This document shows positions 27,330 through 49,287 of a DNA stretch of 64,000 nt, piece after piece (position 1 is the first letter of the stretch; each line of letters starts with the position of its first letter). This DNA comes from Escherichia coli (GTDB lineage Bacteria > Pseudomonadota > Gammaproteobacteria > Enterobacterales > Enterobacteriaceae). Under the pieces are notes generated by a model. It was not told where the DNA came from. It ran no database searches and saw only the letters and a list, made by a program, of their open reading frames with translations. The translations under genes and the position numbers were made by a program. The stretch lies in the NCBI RefSeq assembly GCF_030013595.1, contig NZ_CP122768.1. The stretch is one strand, 5' to 3'.

Positions 27330-28023
27330 CCGGGACTGCAGTGTTTCCCGGACATCATCCGGTAGATGGCTGTAGGGGTTGCCATCCACCTTATGGCTGC
27401 CGCTGTAAATCAGCGTGATTTCCACGCCCTGTTTCTCCAGCGCAGCGCCGTAATTACTGTGAGCCATCATGACGCCGATGGAGCCTGTCCGGGCGGTCTG
27501 CGTGACCAGACGCCGGGAGGCGGCACTGGCAAGCAGCTGACCTGCGCTGCAGTTCATGTCATTGGCCAGCGCCCATACCGGCTTTATGTCACGCACACGG
27601 GCGATGATGTCAGCGCAGTCAAATGCCCCCGCCACCATTCCGCCTGGCGTATCCATATCGAGCAGAATGCCGTCCACCATCGGGTCACTGGCAGCCTGTT
27701 GCAGACGGGCGATAATGCCGTTGTAACCGGTCATTCCCGAATACGGCTGCAGCGCCCGCGTCCGACTGACCAGCGTACCGGACACCGGCAGCACGGCGAT
27801 GCCGTTCATGACCTGATAACTGCGGGCCTGTCGTGGTCCGTCATCATCACCGGATAACGCCAGCGCCGCGGGTGCCTCTCCGGCAGTCAGGCTGTCGCCG
27901 GATACTGCATCCGTCAGGCGGCTGATCCCAAGCTGGCCTGCAAGCGCACAAAAGAAAACCCGCGCATAGGCGGGTTCAAGCATCAGCGGCTCATTAAAAG
28001 CCATGCTGGCAATATGCGGGAGA

Positions 28024-28043
<20 letters not shown>
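26724..28043 (-). CDS. C: capsid assembly protease C (GTG start)
   Basis: 1320 nt as in lambda C; starts at GTG giving (M)TAELRNLPHIASMAFNEPLMLEPAYARVF; 20-bp overlap with B as in lambda. Confidence 0.88.
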
Positions 28044-31724
<3,681 letters not shown>

Positions 31725-31750
<26 letters not shown>

Positions 31751-32270
31751 TCAGCAACCCCGGTATCAGTTCATCCAGCGCGGCTGCTTTGTTCATGGCT
31801 TTGATGATATCCCGTTTCAGGAAATCAACATGTCGGTTTTCCAGTTCCGGAAAACGCCGCTGCACCGACAGGGGGATCCCGTCGAGAATACTGGCAATTT
31901 CACCTGCGATCCGCGACAGCACGAAAGTACAGAATGCGGTTTCCACCACTTCAGCTGAGTCTCTGGCATTCTTCAGTTCCTGTGCGTCGGCCTGCGCACG
32001 CGTAAGTCGATGGCGTTCGTACTCAATAGTCCCTGGCTGGAGATCTGCCTCGCTGGCCTGGCGCAGTTCTTCAACCTCCCGGCGCAGCTTTTCGTTCTCA
32101 ATTTCAGCATCCCTTTCGGCATACCATTTTATAACGGCGGCAGAGTCATAAAGCACCTCATTACCCTTGCCACCGCCTCGCAGAACGGGCATTCCCTGTT
32201 CCTGCCAGTTCTGAATGGTACGGATACTCGCACCGAAAATGTCAGCCAGCTGCTTTTTGTTGACTTCCAT
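31725..32270 (-). CDS. Nu1: terminase small subunit Nu1
   Basis: 181-aa ORF MEVNKKQLADIFGASIRTIQNWQEQGMPVLRGGGKGNEV..., lambda Nu1 with N-terminal wHTH; 26-bp overlap with A as in lambda. Confidence 0.92.
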
Positions 32271-32447
32271 TGTTCATTCCACGGCCAAAAACAGAGAAAG
32301 GAAACGACAAAGGCCCAAAAGTTCGTTTTCAGCACCTGTCGTTTCCTTTCTTTTCAGGGGGTATTTTAAATAGAAACATTAAGTTACGACGAAGAAGAAC
32401 GGAAACGCCTTAAACCGGAAAATTTTCATAAATAGCGAAAACCCGCG
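32271..32447 (-). promoter_or_regulatory. cosB region (terminase binding sites) between cosN and Nu1
   Basis: Reverse complement reads GGGCGGCGACCTCGCGGGTTTTCGCTATTTATGAAAATTTTCCGGTTTAAGGCG..., about 95 percent identical to the lambda left-end leader as I recall it. Confidence 0.75.
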
Positions 32448-32459
32448 AGGTCGCCGCCC
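32448..32459 (-). other. cosN 12-nt cohesive-end sequence GGGCGGCGACCT
   Basis: Plus strand AGGTCGCCGCCC at 32448..32459, the reverse complement of the lambda 5' overhang. Confidence 0.85.
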
Positions 32460-32863
32460 CGTGGCAGGCCACCCCACCGGAAGGACCCGCACAAATGAGA
32501 GTGATTATCACCATTGCTGATGAATAAATTGATGAAAATCATTAAAACGCCTTTCAGCAAGATAACGGCGACGGTCGTTGTTGCACTCCGTAACTCTGCG
32601 ACTAAGGTTAAAAGCATGGCCCTCTTTTGCCACCGGCAAATCTTCAATGGATTTCCCCTGCCGGTTTTTTATTTTCGTCGATGCATAACATTGCATTTAC
32701 ATCAATAGCGGCTATTGTCATTAGTATGTTGCATAAATGCATGGGTGGTATTGGCGGTCTTCGCCGGCCGGTTCTGTGTAGCTGGACCGTTTTTTTATTT
32801 CTCACATTACAGCAGCCCCTTAGAGTGAAGGGCTGCTGTAATGCCGCAATCTTTTTTAACATG

Positions 32864-37583: not shown

Positions 37584-40406
37584 ATGACGGCAAAGTACAT
37601 CAGGGACTGGCAACAACCGCGCCACGCAGTGGGGCGTGAAGGAACGGGGATCCCCGCTCCTGAATCCGCGCTTTCCTCCTGGCTGGATGCCTACCGGGCA
37701 GAGAACGAGCGCCGCCAGGAAATGGCTGATGCGGCGTTCTCCGCCACGCCGCTGGGCAACCTGATTAATAAAAGCCTGGACGCACAGGAAAAACAGGACA
37801 AAACCATCACACTGGCAGGAGACGCCAGAAAACAGGCACGCGGCGCGGTGGATGAAGCCATGGCCTCGCTGCGCCTGCTGCCGTCCTATCTGCGCGATCC
37901 GCTTATTCGCCACCTCTCCTTCCTGCGCAAAAAACAGGAAGCCGATCGTCAGAAAGGAAAAAACGCCAGGCAGGCAGAACGCTATGCGCGTGGGACCCTG
38001 CGCAAAATATTCGAACGTCTGGAGCGCACCGATCACCGCTGGCTGACACCGGGTTATCGCTCCCTTGCCGGACGCGAACGCCTGGACGATTTGCTTTACC
38101 TGCCGCAGCTCAACAAACACCAGATACAGACGCTGGCCACCATGACGGCGGCGATGTTCAGCAGCACCTTCGAAAAACTCTGCGATGGCTTTGGCGCGAC
38201 CGATGGCGAACTGACCATGGATGTAACGCTGAAGGCGTATCAGATGCTGGCCCGCATGGCGTTACACCTGCACATCATGCCTCCACATTATGACGCACTG
38301 ACAACAGACAAAGACCGGAGGAACGAACCGGACACGGAGCTGCTGCCGGGCGCAATCCTTCGCCTGACCTGTGCGGAATGGTGGAAACGCAAACTGTGGC
38401 TGTTACGTTGCGAGTGGCGGGAAGAACAACTCCGCGCCGCCTGTCTGGTTTCCAGAAAAACATCACCCTATCTGAGCCAGGACGCGTTAAGCGAGTTTCG
38501 CGCACACCGCGAGAAAACACGCGATTTCCTGAAAAGTTTCATGCTGGAAAATGAAGACGGGTTCACGATTGATCTCGAGACGGTGTATTACGCGGGAGTA
38601 AGTAACCCGGTTCACCGTAAGGCAGAAATGATGGCCACCATGAAGGGGCTGGAACTTCTGGCCGAAGCCCGTGGCGACAGAGCGGTGTTTCTGACTGTCA
38701 CCTGCCCGTCAAAATACCACGCAACAACGGAGAACGGTCATCCGAATCCCAAATGGAACGGGGCCACCATGCGCGACTCCAGCGATTACCTGGTTAACAC
38801 GTTTTTTGCGACGGTCCGCAAAAAACTGAACCGCGACGGTCTTCGCTGGTATGGCATCCGCACGGTGGAGCCTCACCATGACGGCACTGTGCACTGGCAT
38901 ATGATGGTCTTTGCACATCCGGACGAGATTGAAACCATCGTGTCCCACGTCTGCGATATTGCCATTCAGGAAGACCGCCACGAGCTGGGCGATGATATTA
39001 CTCCGCGTTTTAAAGCGGAGTACGTCGACGGCTCAAAAGGCACGCCAACCAGCTACATCGCCACCTACATCGGAAAGAACCTGGACAGCCGCGCCGTGGA
39101 TGGCATCGCCCCGAAAACGGGCAAGCCACGCGTTGACCACGAAACCGGAAAATCAATGGCCGAGAGCGTGGAGCGCGCCATCGGCTGGGCGCGCCTTCAC
39201 CGGGTCCGCCAGTTCCAGTTCTTTGGCATCCCCTCCCGTCAGGTGTGGCGTGAACTGCGCCGCCTTGCCAGCCAGATGGCACGCAACCCGGAAGGCCCGC
39301 AACGGCTGAAGGATGACGCAATGGATGCAGTGCTCGCTGCCGCTGATGCCGGGTGTTTTGCCTCCTACATTGAAAAACAGGGCGGCGTACTTGTTCCACG
39401 CCAGGACTACCTGATTCGCACCGCCTACGACCTCGCAGATGAGCTGAACGATTACGGCGAACAGAGCGTACAGATTTACGGGATCTGGTCACCACTCATC
39501 GGGGAGTCTTCCCGTGTGTGCACACATCCGGATAACTGGAAGCTGGTAAGACGTAAACCGGAAGCGGAAGACAGCGCCCGCGAAAATGGTTTTGACCTTC
39601 AGGGCGGCCCTGCCGCCCCTTGGACTCGTGGCAATAACTGTCCCCGTGTACAGGAAACGGACAACAACGGGACAGAACAGCCGGAAGAACGGCCAGCACC
39701 GTGGCCGCAGCTCCCTGACGGCGTTGAAGTGAACGAATGGATGCGCTCACTGAAACGGCACGAACGCCGGGCGCTGATGCGTTCGCTTCGTGACAAACAG
39801 GCAAAAAACAGCAGTGATGAAATGCAGAGCTGGACACAGAGCCGCAAACAGCAGCGGCCTTTGCCTGATAACCACGAATTACTCGCTAAAGAATGGCGGG
39901 AGTCTGCTGAATCTCTCGGCCTGCATATCGGTGAACAACAGATGCAGCACCTGTTACGGGGCGGCAGTCTGTACGTTGACGGCAGCATCATTGCACCGCA
40001 GGGATTTGAAATTGTACGCAAACCGGATACCCGCCCGGACAGCCGAATCACGCAGCTCTGGCAGCGCCTGAGCCGTAATCATGGCGTAAGCAGCACGGAG
40101 ATCCGCCATAACCCGGTCGCCAGCTATCTGGCACAGCTGGGGGCATCAGACCCTGAAGCCGCCGCACGCCTGGCATCCACACTTCAGCAGGACCAGAACA
40201 CCATGAAAACACCCGTTACCGTGCTTTCTGACATGCTGCGCGCCATCCGCGACGCAGAGCACGCACAGAGAATCAGTGAAACCACTGAACGCGCCAGCCG
40301 CAAAGCAGACCTGCTGCGGGGTGGCCTGACCAGTGGAAACAAAAAACAGACAGAAACGGGACTCACGAATCCCGCAAATGAGCAAAAAACGCGCAGCGAT
40401 ATATGA
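37584..40406 (+). CDS. A: replication initiation endonuclease, P2 gpA family (rolling-circle, HUH motif)
   Basis: 940-aa ORF with ...WYGIRTVEPHHDGTVHWHMMVF... HxH motif and ...YIATYIGKN... active-site Tyr region typical of P2/186 A proteins. Confidence 0.9.
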   Translation: MTAKYIRDWQQPRHAVGREGTGIPAPESALSSWLDAYRAENERRQEMADAAFSATPLGNLINKSLDAQEKQDKTITLAGDARKQARGAVDEAMASLRLLPSYLRDPLIRHLSFLRKKQEADRQKGKNARQAERYARGTLRKIFERLERTDHRWLTPGYRSLAGRERLDDLLYLPQLNKHQIQTLATMTAAMFSSTFEKLCDGFGATDGELTMDVTLKAYQMLARMALHLHIMPPHYDALTTDKDRRNEPDTELLPGAILRLTCAEWWKRKLWLLRCEWREEQLRAACLVSRKTSPYLSQDALSEFRAHREKTRDFLKSFMLENEDGFTIDLETVYYAGVSNPVHRKAEMMATMKGLELLAEARGDRAVFLTVTCPSKYHATTENGHPNPKWNGATMRDSSDYLVNTFFATVRKKLNRDGLRWYGIRTVEPHHDGTVHWHMMVFAHPDEIETIVSHVCDIAIQEDRHELGDDITPRFKAEYVDGSKGTPTSYIATYIGKNLDSRAVDGIAPKTGKPRVDHETGKSMAESVERAIGWARLHRVRQFQFFGIPSRQVWRELRRLASQMARNPEGPQRLKDDAMDAVLAAADAGCFASYIEKQGGVLVPRQDYLIRTAYDLADELNDYGEQSVQIYGIWSPLIGESSRVCTHPDNWKLVRRKPEAEDSARENGFDLQGGPAAPWTRGNNCPRVQETDNNGTEQPEERPAPWPQLPDGVEVNEWMRSLKRHERRALMRSLRDKQAKNSSDEMQSWTQSRKQQRPLPDNHELLAKEWRESAESLGLHIGEQQMQHLLRGGSLYVDGSIIAPQGFEIVRKPDTRPDSRITQLWQRLSRNHGVSSTEIRHNPVASYLAQLGASDPEAAARLASTLQQDQNTMKTPVTVLSDMLRAIRDAEHAQRISETTERASRKADLLRGGLTSGNKKQTETGLTNPANEQKTRSDI

Positions 40407-40451
40407 AGCGCGCACAAAACAGGCAAAAACGGGATTTCAGAATCCCGTAAA
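40354..40451. repeat. two 25-bp dyad-containing direct repeats straddling the A stop codon, upstream of the parM-like gene
   Basis: AAACGGGACTCACGAATCCCGCAAA (40354..40378) and AAACGGGATTTCAGAATCCCGTAAA (40427..40451); each contains CGGGA-N8-TCCCG; 73-bp centre-to-centre. Confidence 0.6.
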
Positions 40452-40482
40452 CGATTAATTAATCAACATAAGGAAAAGCGAC

Positions 40483-41442
40483 ATGAAAATTTGTATCGAC
40501 GACGGCTCCACCAACATCAAGCTGGCATGGACTGAGAACGGCGAACGCCGCAACGCCATCAGCCCGAACAGCTTCAAGTCGGAATGGTCTGCGCCGTTCG
40601 GCGGCACGCAGCCCGCGAACTACATGCTTGATGGCGTGCGCTATGGTTTTGATCCGGTCAGCGATCGCTTTGTCCAGACGACCGACACGCAATACCAGTA
40701 CAGCGATGTAAATGTCATTGCCATTCATCACGCGCTGGTCAAATCAGGCATCACGCCACAGGAGGTGGATGTGGTTGTCACCCTGCCACTGAGCGAGTAT
40801 TTCGACACAAACGCACAGCCGGACATGGCCAACATCAACCGCAAAAAAGCGAACGTTATGCGCCCGGTGGAGTACCAGAACGGCGAAGCATTCACTATCC
40901 GTAACGTGCGGGTTATGCCTGAATCCATTCCGGCTGGCTTTAAAGCACTGGCTGACATGAGTCCGTTTGAATCCCTGCTGATTGTGGATTTAGGTGGAAC
41001 CACGCTGGATGTGGCAAAGGTTCAGGGACAACTGGCAGGTATCAGCCAGGTGTTTTGCGATCCACACGTAGGCGTTTCCCTGATGGCCGATGCAGTACTG
41101 TCGGTGATGGCCACTAACGGTATGCGTACCAGTCACCACATCGCCAATACCATTATCGAACATCGCCATGATGAAGCCTGGCTGCGCCAGCACATCCACA
41201 ATGACGCGCATTACGCCAGCCTGATGGCGGTTATTCGTGAAAAGGAAGAAACACTGAAACAACGCGTGATCCGCGCGCTGGCGGGTTTTTCGGGTTACGG
41301 GCGGGTGATGGTTGTCGGTGGCGGGGCGGAGATTGTGGCACCCGCTATCCGCGAAGCCTGCGGAGTTAATGCGACTTTCATCGCGGACGGGGTGCCACAG
41401 TTTGCTCTGGTTAATGGGCTGTACGCAATGGACAAGGAGTAA
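40483..41442 (+). CDS. parM: ParM/StbA-family actin-like ATPase
   Basis: 319-aa ORF MKICIDDGSTNIKLAW...NSFKSEW...YSDVNVIAIHHAL...VMPESIPAG...IVDLGGTTLD...VVGGGAE...LVNG, alignable throughout with R1/R100 ParM/StbA. Confidence 0.85.
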   Translation: MKICIDDGSTNIKLAWTENGERRNAISPNSFKSEWSAPFGGTQPANYMLDGVRYGFDPVSDRFVQTTDTQYQYSDVNVIAIHHALVKSGITPQEVDVVVTLPLSEYFDTNAQPDMANINRKKANVMRPVEYQNGEAFTIRNVRVMPESIPAGFKALADMSPFESLLIVDLGGTTLDVAKVQGQLAGISQVFCDPHVGVSLMADAVLSVMATNGMRTSHHIANTIIEHRHDEAWLRQHIHNDAHYASLMAVIREKEETLKQRVIRALAGFSGYGRVMVVGGGAEIVAPAIREACGVNATFIADGVPQFALVNGLYAMDKE

Positions 41443-41446
41443 ACCA

Positions 41447-41758
41447 ATGACGACACCAACCAGACGGATAAGTTTCTATCTGAAGCCCGCCGCCGTCAAG
41501 AACGAAGGCGAAGCATGCGCCTGGCTGGACAGCCTTACACCAGAAGCCCGCAAAAGCGGCCAACGTGTGGCTTTTCTGGCCGGGCTGGCACTTCTGAAAA
41601 TGAATCCGGCAGAGGCTTACCGACTGGCTGCATGGGCTGACGATGAGGCGTTATCAGTGACACAAACCAGGACAGAACGCCCCGCGTCACAGCCAGTACC
41701 AACCACACAGATAACCAGTCGGATGGCCGGAAATATCAGGGCGTTATTTCCCGAATAA
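41447..41758 (+). CDS. parR: ParR/StbB-like adaptor protein (putative ribbon-helix-helix)
   Basis: 103-aa ORF MTTPTRRISFYLKPAAVKNEGEACAWLDSLTPEARKSGQRVAFLAGLALL...; AAGGAG 7 nt upstream, 4 bp after parM stop; N-terminal pattern resembles R1 ParR. Confidence 0.65.
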   Translation: MTTPTRRISFYLKPAAVKNEGEACAWLDSLTPEARKSGQRVAFLAGLALLKMNPAEAYRLAAWADDEALSVTQTRTERPASQPVPTTQITSRMAGNIRALFPE

Positions 41759-41786
41759 CACAACATCAGGGCGCATCCGCCCTGAT
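41735..41786. repeat. ATCAGGGCG direct repeat plus a 9-bp-stem hairpin at the parR 3' end
   Basis: ATCAGGGCG at 41735..41743 and 41765..41773; inverted copy CGCCCTGAT at 41778..41786 forms a hairpin with a CATC loop. Confidence 0.55.
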
Positions 41787-41821
41787 GACTTTAATCCGGG
41801 AACATAAACAAGGGGGACACA

Positions 41822-42154
41822 ATGCAACACATTGACAGAGAAAAAGCGCAGCGACTGATTGAGCGGATGGAAGCGCTGGCGAAAGAAGAAAATGTCAACA
41901 TCCAAAAAATAGCTGAATGTGGCCAGATAGTTCTTCGTCGTGAAAAAGACCTCAAACAACTGATGTCTGGCGAAACCAGCAAAACATGGACTTCAGGCGA
42001 GGAGACGATTTATTGCAGCTTCTGCAATAAATCTCAGTACGAAGTCACAAAGGTGATTGCCGGACCGTCTGTTTACATCTGCAATGAGTGCGTGGATTTG
42101 TGCAATGAAATTATCAGGAGAGAAGTGACAGACAAAAAGGGAAAAAACGCATGA
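41822..42154 (+). CDS. ClpX N-terminal zinc-binding-domain homolog with N-terminal coiled-coil extension
   Basis: 110-aa ORF; C-terminal ...[40 protein letters not shown] is near-identical in pattern to the E. coli ClpX Cys4 zinc-binding domain ([40 protein letters not shown]); AGGGGG RBS. Confidence 0.8.
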
Positions 42155-42489
42155 ACAGAAAACAAAAACAAGAGTTGAAATACTTTTTACGTAAAGAAAT
42201 TGCCAGGCTTGAAGATGCAGAATCACAATCATCAGAAATTCCGTTCGGAATGGATATCAACGACGCCCGTATGCTCCAGGCATACCGCATAGCTCAGGCT
42301 GCACTACAGGCAAAACCGTCAGATGGACTGGTTAGAGCAGTACGATTCTATGAACTGGTAAAGCGTGAGAATCCGCCAGCCGAAACCGGAGCATGGAAAG
42401 ACGCTGTTGACTGGGTACTCAAAGAGGCTTGTCAGGTTGTAAACACTGGCATCAAAGGAGACCTAGCCCAGCCTGCATCAAAGCTATAG
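42151..42489 (+). CDS. hypothetical protein translationally coupled to the ClpX-domain gene
   Basis: 112-aa [29 protein letters not shown]...; ATG overlaps the upstream stop (ATGA); followed by a strong terminator. Confidence 0.55.
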
Positions 42490-42498
42490 AAATGAGCC

Positions 42499-42526
42499 AA
42501 AACGCCCTCTTCCAGGGCGTTTATTT
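42499..42526 (+). terminator. rho-independent terminator closing the accessory island
   Basis: AAAACGCCCT-CTTCC-AGGGCGTTT followed by ATTTC. Confidence 0.75.
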
Positions 42527-42529
42527 CAA

Positions 42530-42669
42530 TGCACAATAGTGCACAAATTTGCACAATTTTTTTGAACGAATTTTTGCCCTTCCGGCCCGCGTGACAGTTG
42601 GATCCGTCAAGGATCCGTGCGTGCACAAAAAAACGCGCTTTTTCTGCGCGCAGGTGACGGGGGAACAGC
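42530..42669. other. candidate cos/packaging region of the P2-like phage
   Basis: Non-coding interval before portal Q where P2 has cos; three TGCACAA repeats at exact 10-bp phasing (42530, 42540, 42550) plus a fourth at 42622; GGATCCGT at 42600 and 42611; palindrome CTGCGCGCAG 42644..42653; GGTGACGGGGGAACAGC (42653..42669) loosely resembles the P2 cohesive end. Confidence 0.4.
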
Positions 42670-42980
42670 CCGCGTTTCAGGGGGTAAATAGCATTCCCTG
42701 AACGATGTCGCAGAGATACAACAGAATGGCTGTATTTCTCACGCTGAGCGTGAAAAAGATGTGAGGGCTTTTGATTTGATGGGGTGAAAGGTAAGGCCGT
42801 CAAAATCGCACTGAGGCGGCGAGAACATACAGTCAACGCGGTAGGATTGCGTAAGAGTCTGACCGTCGATGGTGGCGATAAACTGGAAGGCGTCGTGAAA
42901 TTATCTGATTGATACAGGAGCTGGAGAGTCGGGGCATAAATTTTTTATGCCCCGGCGAAGCAGCAGACAAGCGAAGCGCG

Positions 42981-44027
42981 TCAGGATGTGGGCTGGGTAT
43001 CTAACAGTGCGTAAGGGTTAAAGCGGATCACCTCTTCGCCAAGCCAGTCATTGATGTGCTTCATGGCCTCCATGACGGGCATCAGCTCGTTAATTGCGTA
43101 AACCCGCGCGGCCTTCTCCACATCACCAAACGCACTTTTTTCACCCGGCATCGCTCCCATCAGTTGCGGCGGAACGCGGTGCGCAGCCAGCACATCATCA
43201 CGGGATGCCGCCTTAACATTCATGAACTCATCCTTTGCGGTGATCTGCTGGAACGGCAAAATTTGCACACCTTCTTTGCCCCCGTTGGGCGCATGAATGA
43301 GCACGTTTTTAAATGCACCACCACCACGCGCACCCTGTAACGTTTCTTTCAGGGAGTCCATGCTTTCGCGGTTTACCTGCGCTGCACCGATGTAGATGAT
43401 GCACCCGGCGTGGGATCCGTTGTCGTAATACAGTTTTCTGAACATGTCCGCCGAATGAGACAGGCTGGCCGAGAGTAATGCGCCAAGATATTCCGGCATG
43501 CCGTAAATTTCCTGGTTAATGTCAGGATTCATCAGGTGACACACTTTGCCTGGGCGAAACTGAAACGCATCCTTGCCATCCTGCACATACCACCATGATT
43601 CAAGATCGCTTCCGCGTCGCATGTATTTCGCCAGGGCGTGCCGTAATTTAAGCGGTTCGCCGAGCATATTGCTTCGAAGCTCAAGGAATGCGTTACCGAA
43701 CACAAACCAGTCCAGCGCCAGCGCCGAGAAATCCTGCCGGGAAAGCAGCGGGTGCGGAATATAGCAGCCGAGCAATACATTGCGCTTAAAGTAAAGCGCA
43801 GACTGATGCCAGGACGTTTGCCGGGCAGCTCTTGCCAGACCGTACCAGTCTACCGGGGTTTCATACCACCGCCCGTTATCAGCACAGTACATATTGTCCA
43901 GCAGGTCATGCCCGGTCAGGCGATAAGGACCATCAAATGTGAATGCACTGAGCGATGATTCTTTCCTGAGCGCATCAGCGAGATCAATGCGTGAACTCAT
44001 GCGCACTTTTTTATTTTTTCTGCTCAT
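42981..44027 (-). CDS. Q: portal protein, P2 gpQ family
   Basis: 348-aa ORF, size and sequence pattern of P2 Q; leftward, upstream of terminase P. Confidence 0.9.
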   Translation of the reverse strand: MSRKNKKVRMSSRIDLADALRKESSLSAFTFDGPYRLTGHDLLDNMYCADNGRWYETPVDWYGLARAARQTSWHQSALYFKRNVLLGCYIPHPLLSRQDFSALALDWFVFGNAFLELRSNMLGEPLKLRHALAKYMRRGSDLESWWYVQDGKDAFQFRPGKVCHLMNPDINQEIYGMPEYLGALLSASLSHSADMFRKLYYDNGSHAGCIIYIGAAQVNRESMDSLKETLQGARGGGAFKNVLIHAPNGGKEGVQILPFQQITAKDEFMNVKAASRDDVLAAHRVPPQLMGAMPGEKSAFGDVEKAARVYAINELMPVMEAMKHINDWLGEEVIRFNPYALLDTQPTS

Positions 44028-48783: not shown

Positions 48784-49287
48784 GTGAACCCCATGAGTAT
48801 GGTTGCCAGAACTGAACCCAGACCCGCAGAGGACGACATCACCGATACCGATGATGGCGATACCCGCATTTCAGCGGGTGCATTCTGGCCGGATATTGTG
48901 CTGCGCGAGCTGCGTCTGGCGGTACGACTGCCGGGCCGCGTGACCACCTCCCGCCTGCTACATACTGCCACCGGGGCTGTGGCACACGTTACCCGCGAGC
49001 TGGAAGCATGGCAGCAGGAACAGCAGGCAGCTGGCCATCAGACGCTGGCCGATGTTCCGGCACCCGTAATTAACGGAGAAAGCGTCAATCTCTGGCACTG
49101 GCGCAATGCTGTTTATACCGCCACGCGCGCCCTGATTCTGGAGCGTTACCGCGATGCGGACACAACGGATAAGGGCGACCGCCGGGCGGACGCACTGGAT
49201 ATACAGACATCGGATTTGTGGCGCGATGTGAGCTGGGCCATCTCTGACATTCTGCGCCGCCCGCGAATTTTTGCGGAGCTGTGCTGA
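48784..49287 (+). CDS. L: head completion protein, P2 gpL family
   Basis: 167-aa ORF at the P2 L position. Confidence 0.85.
   Translation: MNPMSMVARTEPRPAEDDITDTDDGDTRISAGAFWPDIVLRELRLAVRLPGRVTTSRLLHTATGAVAHVTRELEAWQQEQQAAGHQTLADVPAPVINGESVNLWHWRNAVYTATRALILERYRDADTTDKGDRRADALDIQTSDLWRDVSWAISDILRRPRIFAELC

Follow-up and report, generated by a model that had tools for sequence, protein, structure and literature searches.

In mosaic temperate phages, short conserved boundary (linker) sequences are present at the junctions between modules, as was recognized in the comparative genomics of lambdoid phages. Intercistronic hairpins with a stabilizing role are a further type of short element, an example being the REP in malE-malF. 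In R1-type ParMRC partition systems the centromere, parC, is an array of about ten iterons located upstream of parM.

In E. coli, Rho-dependent or processed transcripts can carry a protective stem-loop without a U-rich tail at the 3′ end (Dar and Sorek 2018; PMC6061677). In P2-like phages the gpA-gpQ interval, next to cos, is a hotspot for, and a known reservoir of, anti-phage and accessory genes (Rousset et al. 2022, PMC9122126), and about a quarter of these phages carry a partition system there (PMC9122126). In term searches, neither PMC9122126 nor a 2026 preprint dealing with these hotspots was found to mention a hairpin or terminator at the borders.

We studied a locus of this kind in a window of 64,000 nucleotides from an Escherichia coli genome (RefSeq assembly GCF_030013595.1, contig NZ_CP122768.1). 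The 2.3 kb compared around a hairpin located just after parR was 100% identical to Escherichia phage P88 (Peduoviridae, Xuanwuvirus), a P2-like phage. The features of the locus were as follows:

37584-40406: gpA, replication endonuclease, upstream of parM
40483-41442, plus strand: parM, 319 aa, actin-like segregation ATPase with StbA_N and ParM C-terminal domains (Pfam)
41447-41758, plus strand: parR, 103 aa, Pfam Plasmid_stab_B, with which the conserved gpA-parM-parR block ends
41735-41743, plus strand: copy of ATCAGGGCG within parR, codons ATC AGG GCG (Ile-Arg-Ala), in the C-terminal ...GNIRALFPE
41764-41787, plus strand: hairpin CATCAGGGCG-CATC-CGCCCTGATG, a perfect 10-bp GC-rich stem whose core, CAGGGCG/CGCCCTG, is conserved in relatives
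41788-41821, plus strand: leader of the first cargo gene, ACTTTAATCCGGGAACATAAACAAGGGGGACACA, with the Shine-Dalgarno-like AAGGGGGA
41822-42154, plus strand: cargo gene 1, a ClpX C4 zinc-finger protein
42151-42489, plus strand: cargo gene 2, unknown, overlapping cargo gene 1
42500-42527, plus strand: right-edge hairpin AAACGCCCT-CTTCC-AGGGCGTTT, followed by ATTTC (T-run)
42531-42980: conserved non-coding right flank GCACAATAGTGCACAAATTTGCAC..., spanning the presumed cos region to the portal gene, the right border of the variable region
42981-44027, minus strand: portal gene (gpQ); the terminase gene is also on the minus strand

Comparison with related phages indicated that this locus belongs to the hotspot. 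It lies between gpA and the portal gene gpQ with cos adjoining, and its content differed among otherwise near-identical phages, with at least eight contents present 3′ of parR. Related parMR regions were identified in 1695 of 5426 complete E. coli genomes. The cargo of the relatives consisted of a ClpX zinc-finger gene with an unknown gene, a single unknown gene, ead/Ea22-like genes, an AAA ATPase with an S8 peptidase, an HTH gene with a PIN gene, a DUF3800 gene on the opposite strand, or almost nothing. In the 93 loci with a located parR end, between 83 and 2328 nt separated the parR stop from the conserved right flank (GCACAATAGTGCAC...). PADLOC gave no match for the cargo of this prophage, and a known defense function for that cargo was ruled out on this result.

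The conserved and variable parts of these loci met close to the end of parR. Collinearity with the window was lost between the parR stop and the end of the hairpin in 55 of 90 loci, and on this basis we place the left border of the exchangeable segment at the hairpin. Since the hairpin is the last sequence shared before unrelated cargo, most mosaic junctions fall there. Judged by these alignments, the hairpin divides the conserved gpA-parM-parR block from the variable hotspot cargo, and it is most likely a recurrent junction for cargo exchange. The initial annotation had proposed that the hairpin separates two bicistronic units; these units are not equivalent, one being the conserved parMR pair and the other exchangeable cargo, with the hairpin as the junction between them.

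The locus is thus like the hotspot of Rousset et al. in its location, its proximity to cos, its wide variation in content among close relatives, and the presence of a partition system in a sizeable fraction of the phages. It differs in that the left border of the exchangeable part is here pinned to a specific stem-loop after parR, and in that, within the P88-like clade, parMR forms a conserved block and does not behave like cargo. For P88-type phages, this places the left border of the exchangeable segment at a structured element only a few bases after parR. The hairpin may therefore serve as a small, defined target for studying how expression of a replication and partition block is insulated from arbitrary cargo, and whether cargo is exchanged by ordinary homologous recombination or in a site-directed manner.

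The hairpin at 41764-41787 is a real feature of this DNA. Copies of the 9-mer ATCAGGGCG are present on the plus strand at 41735-41743 and 41765-41773, and its reverse complement, CGCCCTGAT, is present at 41778-41786, so that there are three copies inside 52 bp. These repeat positions and the presence of a hairpin right after the parR stop agreed with the initial annotation; the stem is in fact 10 bp. Seven of the ten pairs are G-C, the loop is 4 nt, and the folding energy is about -17 to -18 kcal/mol. The stem begins 6 nt 3′ of the parR TAA (41756-41758), and the next ATG, at 41822, is 35 nt beyond the stem. The 9-mer was present four times in the window compared to 0.48 expected, a count reached in 0 of 100 shuffles; the fourth copy, at 49128 on the minus strand, is within coding sequence and has no hairpin. 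Perfect hairpins with a stem of at least 10 bp occurred at five places in the window versus 0.37 expected from simulated sequence. The folding z-score of the 111-nt region around the hairpin was -3.1. The exact hairpin occurred only once in the window.

A CAGGGCG-N4-5-CGCCCTG hairpin was present 3′ of the parR stop in 68 of the 88 related loci that had enough sequence downstream of parR. Its loop was CATC, TATC, AGTT, TATT or GAAAC, it was positioned 5-9 nt after the stop, and it preceded at least five unrelated types of cargo or downstream sequence. A Cronobacter relative whose ParR is 88% identical had an identical hairpin and different cargo. A search of a viral collection for the exact hairpin (9-bp stem, any loop) gave 45 matches, of which 39 were directly after parR; the remaining six were in unrelated GC-rich coding sequence and were attributed to chance. 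This specificity for one locus ruled out a dispersed palindrome of the REP/BIME type. In addition, an Rfam 15 search of 40200-43000 on both strands gave no match at E <= 1, and a known RNA family was ruled out for the hairpin on that basis.

Two of the relatives had chimeric hairpins. In one (L091) the 5′ arm and loop of the window hairpin were joined to an ead-type 3′ flank, and in the other (L026) an AGTT loop was combined with a third kind of flank. Like the linkers of lambdoid phages, the hairpin is therefore a short sequence shared between unrelated modules to which recombinant joints map. Unlike those linkers, the boundary here is a palindrome with maintained pairing, and a related palindrome is present at the other edge of the cargo.

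The hairpin did not accompany every related ParR. Phages with the same gpA, parM, upstream region and first ~18 parR codons but with an alternative, 52%-identical ParR had no such hairpin, and no comparable hairpin was found next to ParR relatives of 41-64% identity in other P2-like contexts. Because the hairpin is lacking with the 52% allele and with ParR of 64% identity or less, it is not needed by parMR as such, and deep conservation was rejected. A scan of genome contigs for ParR gave two loci only.

This distribution bears on whether the palindrome is recognized by a protein, as the initial annotation had considered. In such an explanation, the three ATCAGGGCG copies would serve ParR or some other regulator as an operator or downstream centromere. 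A palindrome of 18-24 bp is of the size typical for dimeric DNA-binding proteins, the core stem sequence is nearly invariant, and the clustering of three 9-mer copies within 52 bp is also what such a site might have. However, the third copy was absent from most relatives, and the palindrome itself was missing from the phages that carry the alternative ParR allele and whose parM, upstream region and ParR N-terminal residues are otherwise the same. A role in ParR binding or as a centromere is disfavored because these phages and the 41-64% ParR relatives lack the hairpin. Sequence changes within the stem, namely a compensatory change at mid-stem in one locus (L157) and extended or shifted stems, also point to structure rather than to base-specific recognition. 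We consider a protein-binding site quite improbable.

The comparison with parC led to the same view. The hairpin does adjoin a bona fide StbA/StbB-type parMR pair and does involve a repeated short sequence, but it is one palindrome located downstream of parR, accompanied by a non-conserved coding look-alike, whereas the centromere of R1-type ParMRC consists of iterons upstream of parM. Repeats were present upstream of parM in this locus, and they differ in sequence from the hairpin motif. A parC centromere was ruled out, as the look-alike differs in 75 of 93 loci and the hairpin is absent with the alternative ParR allele.

The copy of the 9-mer within parR was poorly conserved. The exact ATCAGGGCG was kept in 18 of the 93 related loci, and the site read ATCCGGGCG in 61, a synonymous AGG/CGG change; the other 14 had further changes, with GCA in place of GCG in 12 of them. 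L157 has GTCAGAGCG as its hairpin arm but retains ATCAGGGCG within the gene, so the two did not co-vary. By simple arithmetic, about a dozen cases of a 9-mer repeated within 50 nt would be expected in 64 kb. Based on the alignments, the direct repeat at 41735 is the Ile-Arg-Ala codons of ParR and neither a conserved DNA element nor a part of the hairpin, because it is coding, differs in most relatives and matches the arm in only 18 of 93 loci. The suggestion in the initial annotation that the direct repeat forms part of the site was consequently abandoned. RNAalifold predicted a stem within parR, GGAAATA...TATTTCC, whose loop contains the in-gene motif; we attribute this stem to codon constraints on Asn-Ile...Leu-Phe.

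These findings also removed the basis of an attenuation mechanism, in which the in-gene copy at 41735 would compete with the 5′ arm at 41765 for pairing with the 3′ arm at 41778, with translation of parR deciding the outcome. The geometry in the window would permit this, as every base of the in-gene copy can pair with the 3′ arm, and the start of the stem would be covered by a ribosome at the 41756-41758 stop. However, 75 of the 93 relatives do not have the exact 9-mer in the gene, and in these the alternative pairing would be interrupted by a mismatch at its center. The local hairpin also greatly exceeds the alternative pairing in stability, and neither structure has a U-tract to control. With the in-gene copy not conserved and the pairing broken in most relatives, we regard this mechanism as extremely unlikely; attenuation in general had also been raised in the initial annotation.

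The variation within the stem was informative regarding the level at which the hairpin may act. The seven core pairs were invariant except in L157; this invariance among close relatives is uninformative on structure versus sequence. In L157, whose ParR is 70% identical, the hairpin was in the same place, had a mid-stem change from G-C to A-T and had a longer stem. Loci of the L008 type had a T-A to C-G change plus an extra inner pair. In an alignment of ten distinct variants, which is a small and partly hand-picked set, 93% of cells were paired, four pairs were changed on both sides, and the observed covariation score was reached by 0 of 500 column shuffles. Two independent G·T wobbles (L004 type and L017) pair on the plus strand only and would be C·A mismatches on the minus strand. 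Uncompensated stem mutations were present in three singleton loci (L034, L082 and L083). These data give modest support to a structure selected in the sense strand. An outer helix, UUCCCG/CGGGAA, surrounded the hairpin in the single-sequence fold; by eye it survives only in ClpX-type variants, via wobble changes, and a larger RNA structure was rejected.

The hairpin is not a sense-strand intrinsic terminator. Its 3′ tail is ACTTTAATCC, with no U-run, its plus-strand terminator score (d'Aubenton-Carafa-type, approximate) was about -30, and a terminator scan called no terminator on the plus strand at this position. It is similar to intrinsic terminators, such as t95a and t95b of phage 186 and the 42500-42527 hairpin, in having a 7-10 bp GC-rich stem and a 4-nt loop at the end of a gene block. 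It differs from them in lacking, on the sense strand, the U-tract that the phage 186 terminators and the right-edge hairpin possess. No U-run was found on the plus strand after the variants in L005, L006 and L008, or after any other hairpin variant examined. The statement of the initial annotation that this is not a simple terminator, based on the lack of a U-run, thus held across the variants.

We also considered that the hairpin might be an intrinsic terminator or insulator for the minus strand, on which TTGTGTTATT follows the stem. It would then stop leftward transcription from the cargo or cos side before this became antisense to parR-parM-gpA. The terminator scan did list the hairpin as a terminator-like site on the minus strand, where its score, although weak, was +9.9 versus -30 on the plus strand, and the P2 hotspot cargo old-tin is annotated as transcribed leftward from a promoter near cos. 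Several observations oppose this explanation. The T-rich tail on the minus strand is partly forced by the parR stop and Glu codons, the other hairpin variants had negative terminator scores on both strands, and the loci with minus-strand cargo (L010, L013 and L096) do not have this hairpin. In addition, the wobble pairs described above would be mismatched on the minus strand, and the scan placed a stronger minus-strand terminator at 42633-42651, so that one is already present. A leftward promoter in the right flank, in the style of P2 old-tin, was rejected because the flank had no promoter-like site and did not resemble the P2 region. Together, these points make a minus-strand terminator unlikely.

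Of the readings that we considered, an RNA-level role in the sense strand, which had been included in the initial annotation, appears to be the best supported, given the covariation and the wobbles that pair only on the plus strand. Specifically, we propose, at about even confidence, that the gpA-parM-parR block ends in a non-terminating stem-loop, the hairpin, whose role is to protect or insulate the parMR message. The parts of this explanation that concern the border and the structure are much firmer than the part that concerns RNA stability. The hairpin would form in the early-operon mRNA just 3′ of the parR stop. Because it has no U-tract, RNA polymerase should not be stopped and would pass through it, so that the ClpX-zinc-finger cargo could be transcribed in this prophage. 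The stable stem would then act as a barrier to 3′-to-5′ exonucleases and would give the parMR message a defined, protected 3′ end whatever cargo follows, which may uncouple the stability and level of parMR from the downstream cargo. Should the hairpin be only an mRNA end or insulator, which we hold to be most likely, it would represent routine operon architecture.

By analogy, the closest functional parallels of the hairpin would be the protective, U-less stem-loops of E. coli and the boundary sequences of mosaic phages. In common with the class described by Dar and Sorek, it is a stable GC-rich stem-loop right after a stop codon and lacks a U-rich tail, and in some variants it is followed by a tract that is C-rich and G-poor. 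In the 90 nt after the hairpin there were 29 C and 10 G in L006 and 22 C and 12 G in L008, and the tract in the Cronobacter locus (L154) was C-rich by eye. In relatives with a long untranslated C-rich spacer, the hairpin could be the protective hairpin of a Rho-dependent end. In the window, the 90 nt after the hairpin contain 18 C and 25 G and so are not C-rich, and the next gene begins after 35 nt; in both respects the window differs from that class. The Rho-linked version does not apply in the window since the tract after the hairpin is not C-rich, and read-through would be expected for the same reason and because the next gene is translated almost at once. The hairpin also resembles the REP in malE-malF in being a stable GC-rich stem-loop just past a stop codon with no U-rich tail.

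A promoter for the cargo at or near the hairpin was rejected. The promoter scan from parR to the cargo ATG identified no sigma-70-like or other promoter-like site. By eye, the best -10-like sequence, TTTAAT (41790-41795), had no -35 partner; it becomes TTTAAC in many relatives. The leader part AACATAAACAAGG was common to ClpX-type and ead/Ea22-type cargo.

The right-edge hairpin resembles a terminator placed at the cargo end. Its AGGGCG/CGCCCT core is in common with that of the left hairpin. Its terminator scores were slightly negative on both strands (-9.2 and -6.4, approximate), and a consensus terminator scan did not include 42500-42527 among its sites. Among the relatives, the right-edge hairpin had one of two forms, either AAACGCCCT-CYTCC-AGGGCGTTT with a T-run or CAGGGCGAT-AATCRCRC-ATCGCCCTG abutting the conserved flank. 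A role in RNA stability alone would not explain the presence of similar AGGGCG/CGCCCT hairpins at both cargo edges.

This arrangement raised the question of whether the CAGGGCG palindrome is a dedicated recombination site for cargo, used by a recombinase, by the HUH initiator gpA, or through hairpin-promoted template switching. A scan of the 93 loci, which extended about 3 kb upstream, found AGGGCG/CGCCCT hairpins at the two cargo edges and nowhere else. The only truly empty hotspot that we found (L144/L145; ParR 74% identical, one copy being from a Hafnia MAG) had a single hairpin, CAGGGCGAT-AATCATGT-ATCGCCCTG, whose left flank was as in the left hairpin and whose right flank was as in the right hairpin, and ead-type loci had one hairpin on each side. 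Another locus (L009) resembled the product of a deletion between two CATCAGGGCG copies that are found in L002. We speculate that the palindrome might be an insertion or exchange site, with one copy in an empty hotspot, one per edge in an occupied one, and movement of hairpin-bounded cassettes. If this speculation is correct, the rapid turnover of P2-like defense hotspots would have a concrete mechanism in cassette exchange.

Against this, multi-gene cargo had no internal hairpins, and many loci had the hairpin at one edge only or at neither. The two-hairpin state can also be explained by ordinary recombination of left-only and right-only variants within shared ead/Ea22 sequence. Long flanking homologies, in parR and on the cos side, suffice for exchange and make a special recombination site unnecessary. 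No further empty sites were found in two pattern scans of the collections, and a BLAST search of E. coli genomes with the flanks joined gave only loci with ~540-630 nt of cargo among the best 60 matches listed. We therefore consider a dedicated recombination site distinctly unlikely, and the specific model of an insertion or exchange site improbable.

The possible involvement of gpA was assessed by comparison with the P88 origin, predicted at 39596-39646 from its resemblance to the origins annotated in P2 and 186. In P2, 186 and P88 alike, a small GC hairpin precedes the nick site of the origin. The predicted P88 hairpin contains CAGGGCGG, which counts in favor of a recombination site. However, the similarity was confined to an 8-mer, TCAGGGCG being all that the hairpin and the P88 origin have in common, and the nick-site core and CAATAACTGT box of the P2, 186 and P88 origins were not found after the hairpin. 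A gpA pseudo-origin or rolling-circle origin was thus rejected as unsupported: when the P88 origin segment was scanned along the entire 64,000 nucleotides, the hairpin scored 17-18, ranked 59th of 6392 windows, and was exceeded by a chance site in an unrelated lambdoid portal gene, which scored 30.

The gpA-gpQ interval of the P88-type prophage differed in content among the related parMR loci with which it was compared. In two of these loci (L144, at 2120-2160, and L145, from a Hafnia MAG), whose ParR was 74% identical, the hotspot is apparently empty. The parR stop codon in these loci is followed by AACATTGT and a single hairpin, CAGGGCGAT-AATCATGT-ATCGCCCTG, which leads directly into the conserved cos-side flank, and the distance from parR to the portal gene is 485 nt. 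Other loci had different cargo at the same position (an AAA ATPase and S8 peptidase pair, and an HTH and PIN-domain pair; L006, from E. coli PE15, and L008, from E. coli AR_0118), and both pairs appear to be candidates for defence or toxin-antitoxin systems.

The first cargo gene in the window (41822-42154) encodes a 60-residue leader followed only by the C4 zinc-finger domain of the ClpX N-terminus, with the AAA+ module absent. PADLOC returned no match for this gene. In the P88 RefSeq record it is labeled a "carboxylate--amine ligase", apparently in error. A possible role for such a protein is to serve as a decoy, either for the adaptors of ClpX or for its substrates. The gene also contains a perfect 12-bp palindrome, GATTTATTGCAG-CTT-CTGCAATAAATC (42007-42033), which spans the sequence encoding the first Cys-x-x-Cys (IYCSFCNK). 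Among the window's hairpins with short loops (3-8 nt), its perfect stem is the longest.

The cargo ends at a hairpin, AAACGCCCT-CTTCC-AGGGCGTTT, followed by ATTTC (42500-42527). The 3' half and tail of this structure (CAGGGCGTTTATTTC) resemble the 3' end of parR (CAGGGCGTTATTTC), with 14 of 15 bases identical and one indel, a resemblance that may be due to chance or may have been left by the assembly of the locus. The conserved right flank opens with three spaced TGCAC motifs (GCACAATAGTGCACAAATTTGCACAAT; 42531-42556), and a perfect 11-bp hairpin, CGGGGCATAAA-TTT-TTTATGCCCCG, lies just past the portal stop codon (42930-42954). These motifs and the 11-bp hairpin are probably packaging or termination signals.

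The parR gene itself was found to be mosaic. A large group of prophages (L096 among them) matches the window in gpA, parM and approximately the first 18 codons of parR (window 41447-41500), after which their parR continues as an AT-rich allele with an overall identity of only 52%. The C-terminal NI..LFPE motif is retained in this allele.

Upstream of parM, two direct repeats of 42 nt each (40340-40454; 79% identity, spacing 73 nt) span the gpA stop codon and the region preceding parM. Both repeats score as terminator-like on the minus strand because each has an 8-bp hairpin (ACGGGA...TCCCGT) after an A-run. These repeats could represent the parC/promoter region of the ParMR system in the window. 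Within the gpA gene, similarity to the annotated origins of P2 and 186 located a predicted rolling-circle replication origin:

gpA nick site (predicted), 39596-39646: a hairpin, AGGGCGGC-CCT-GCCGCCC(C), followed by TTGGACTCGTGG and the shared box CAATAACTGT

Packaging and head genes of a lambdoid prophage (27500-32500; terminase large subunit, portal, nohD and S49 peptidase) precede the P88-type genes by a few kb, and the window therefore covers parts of two different prophages.
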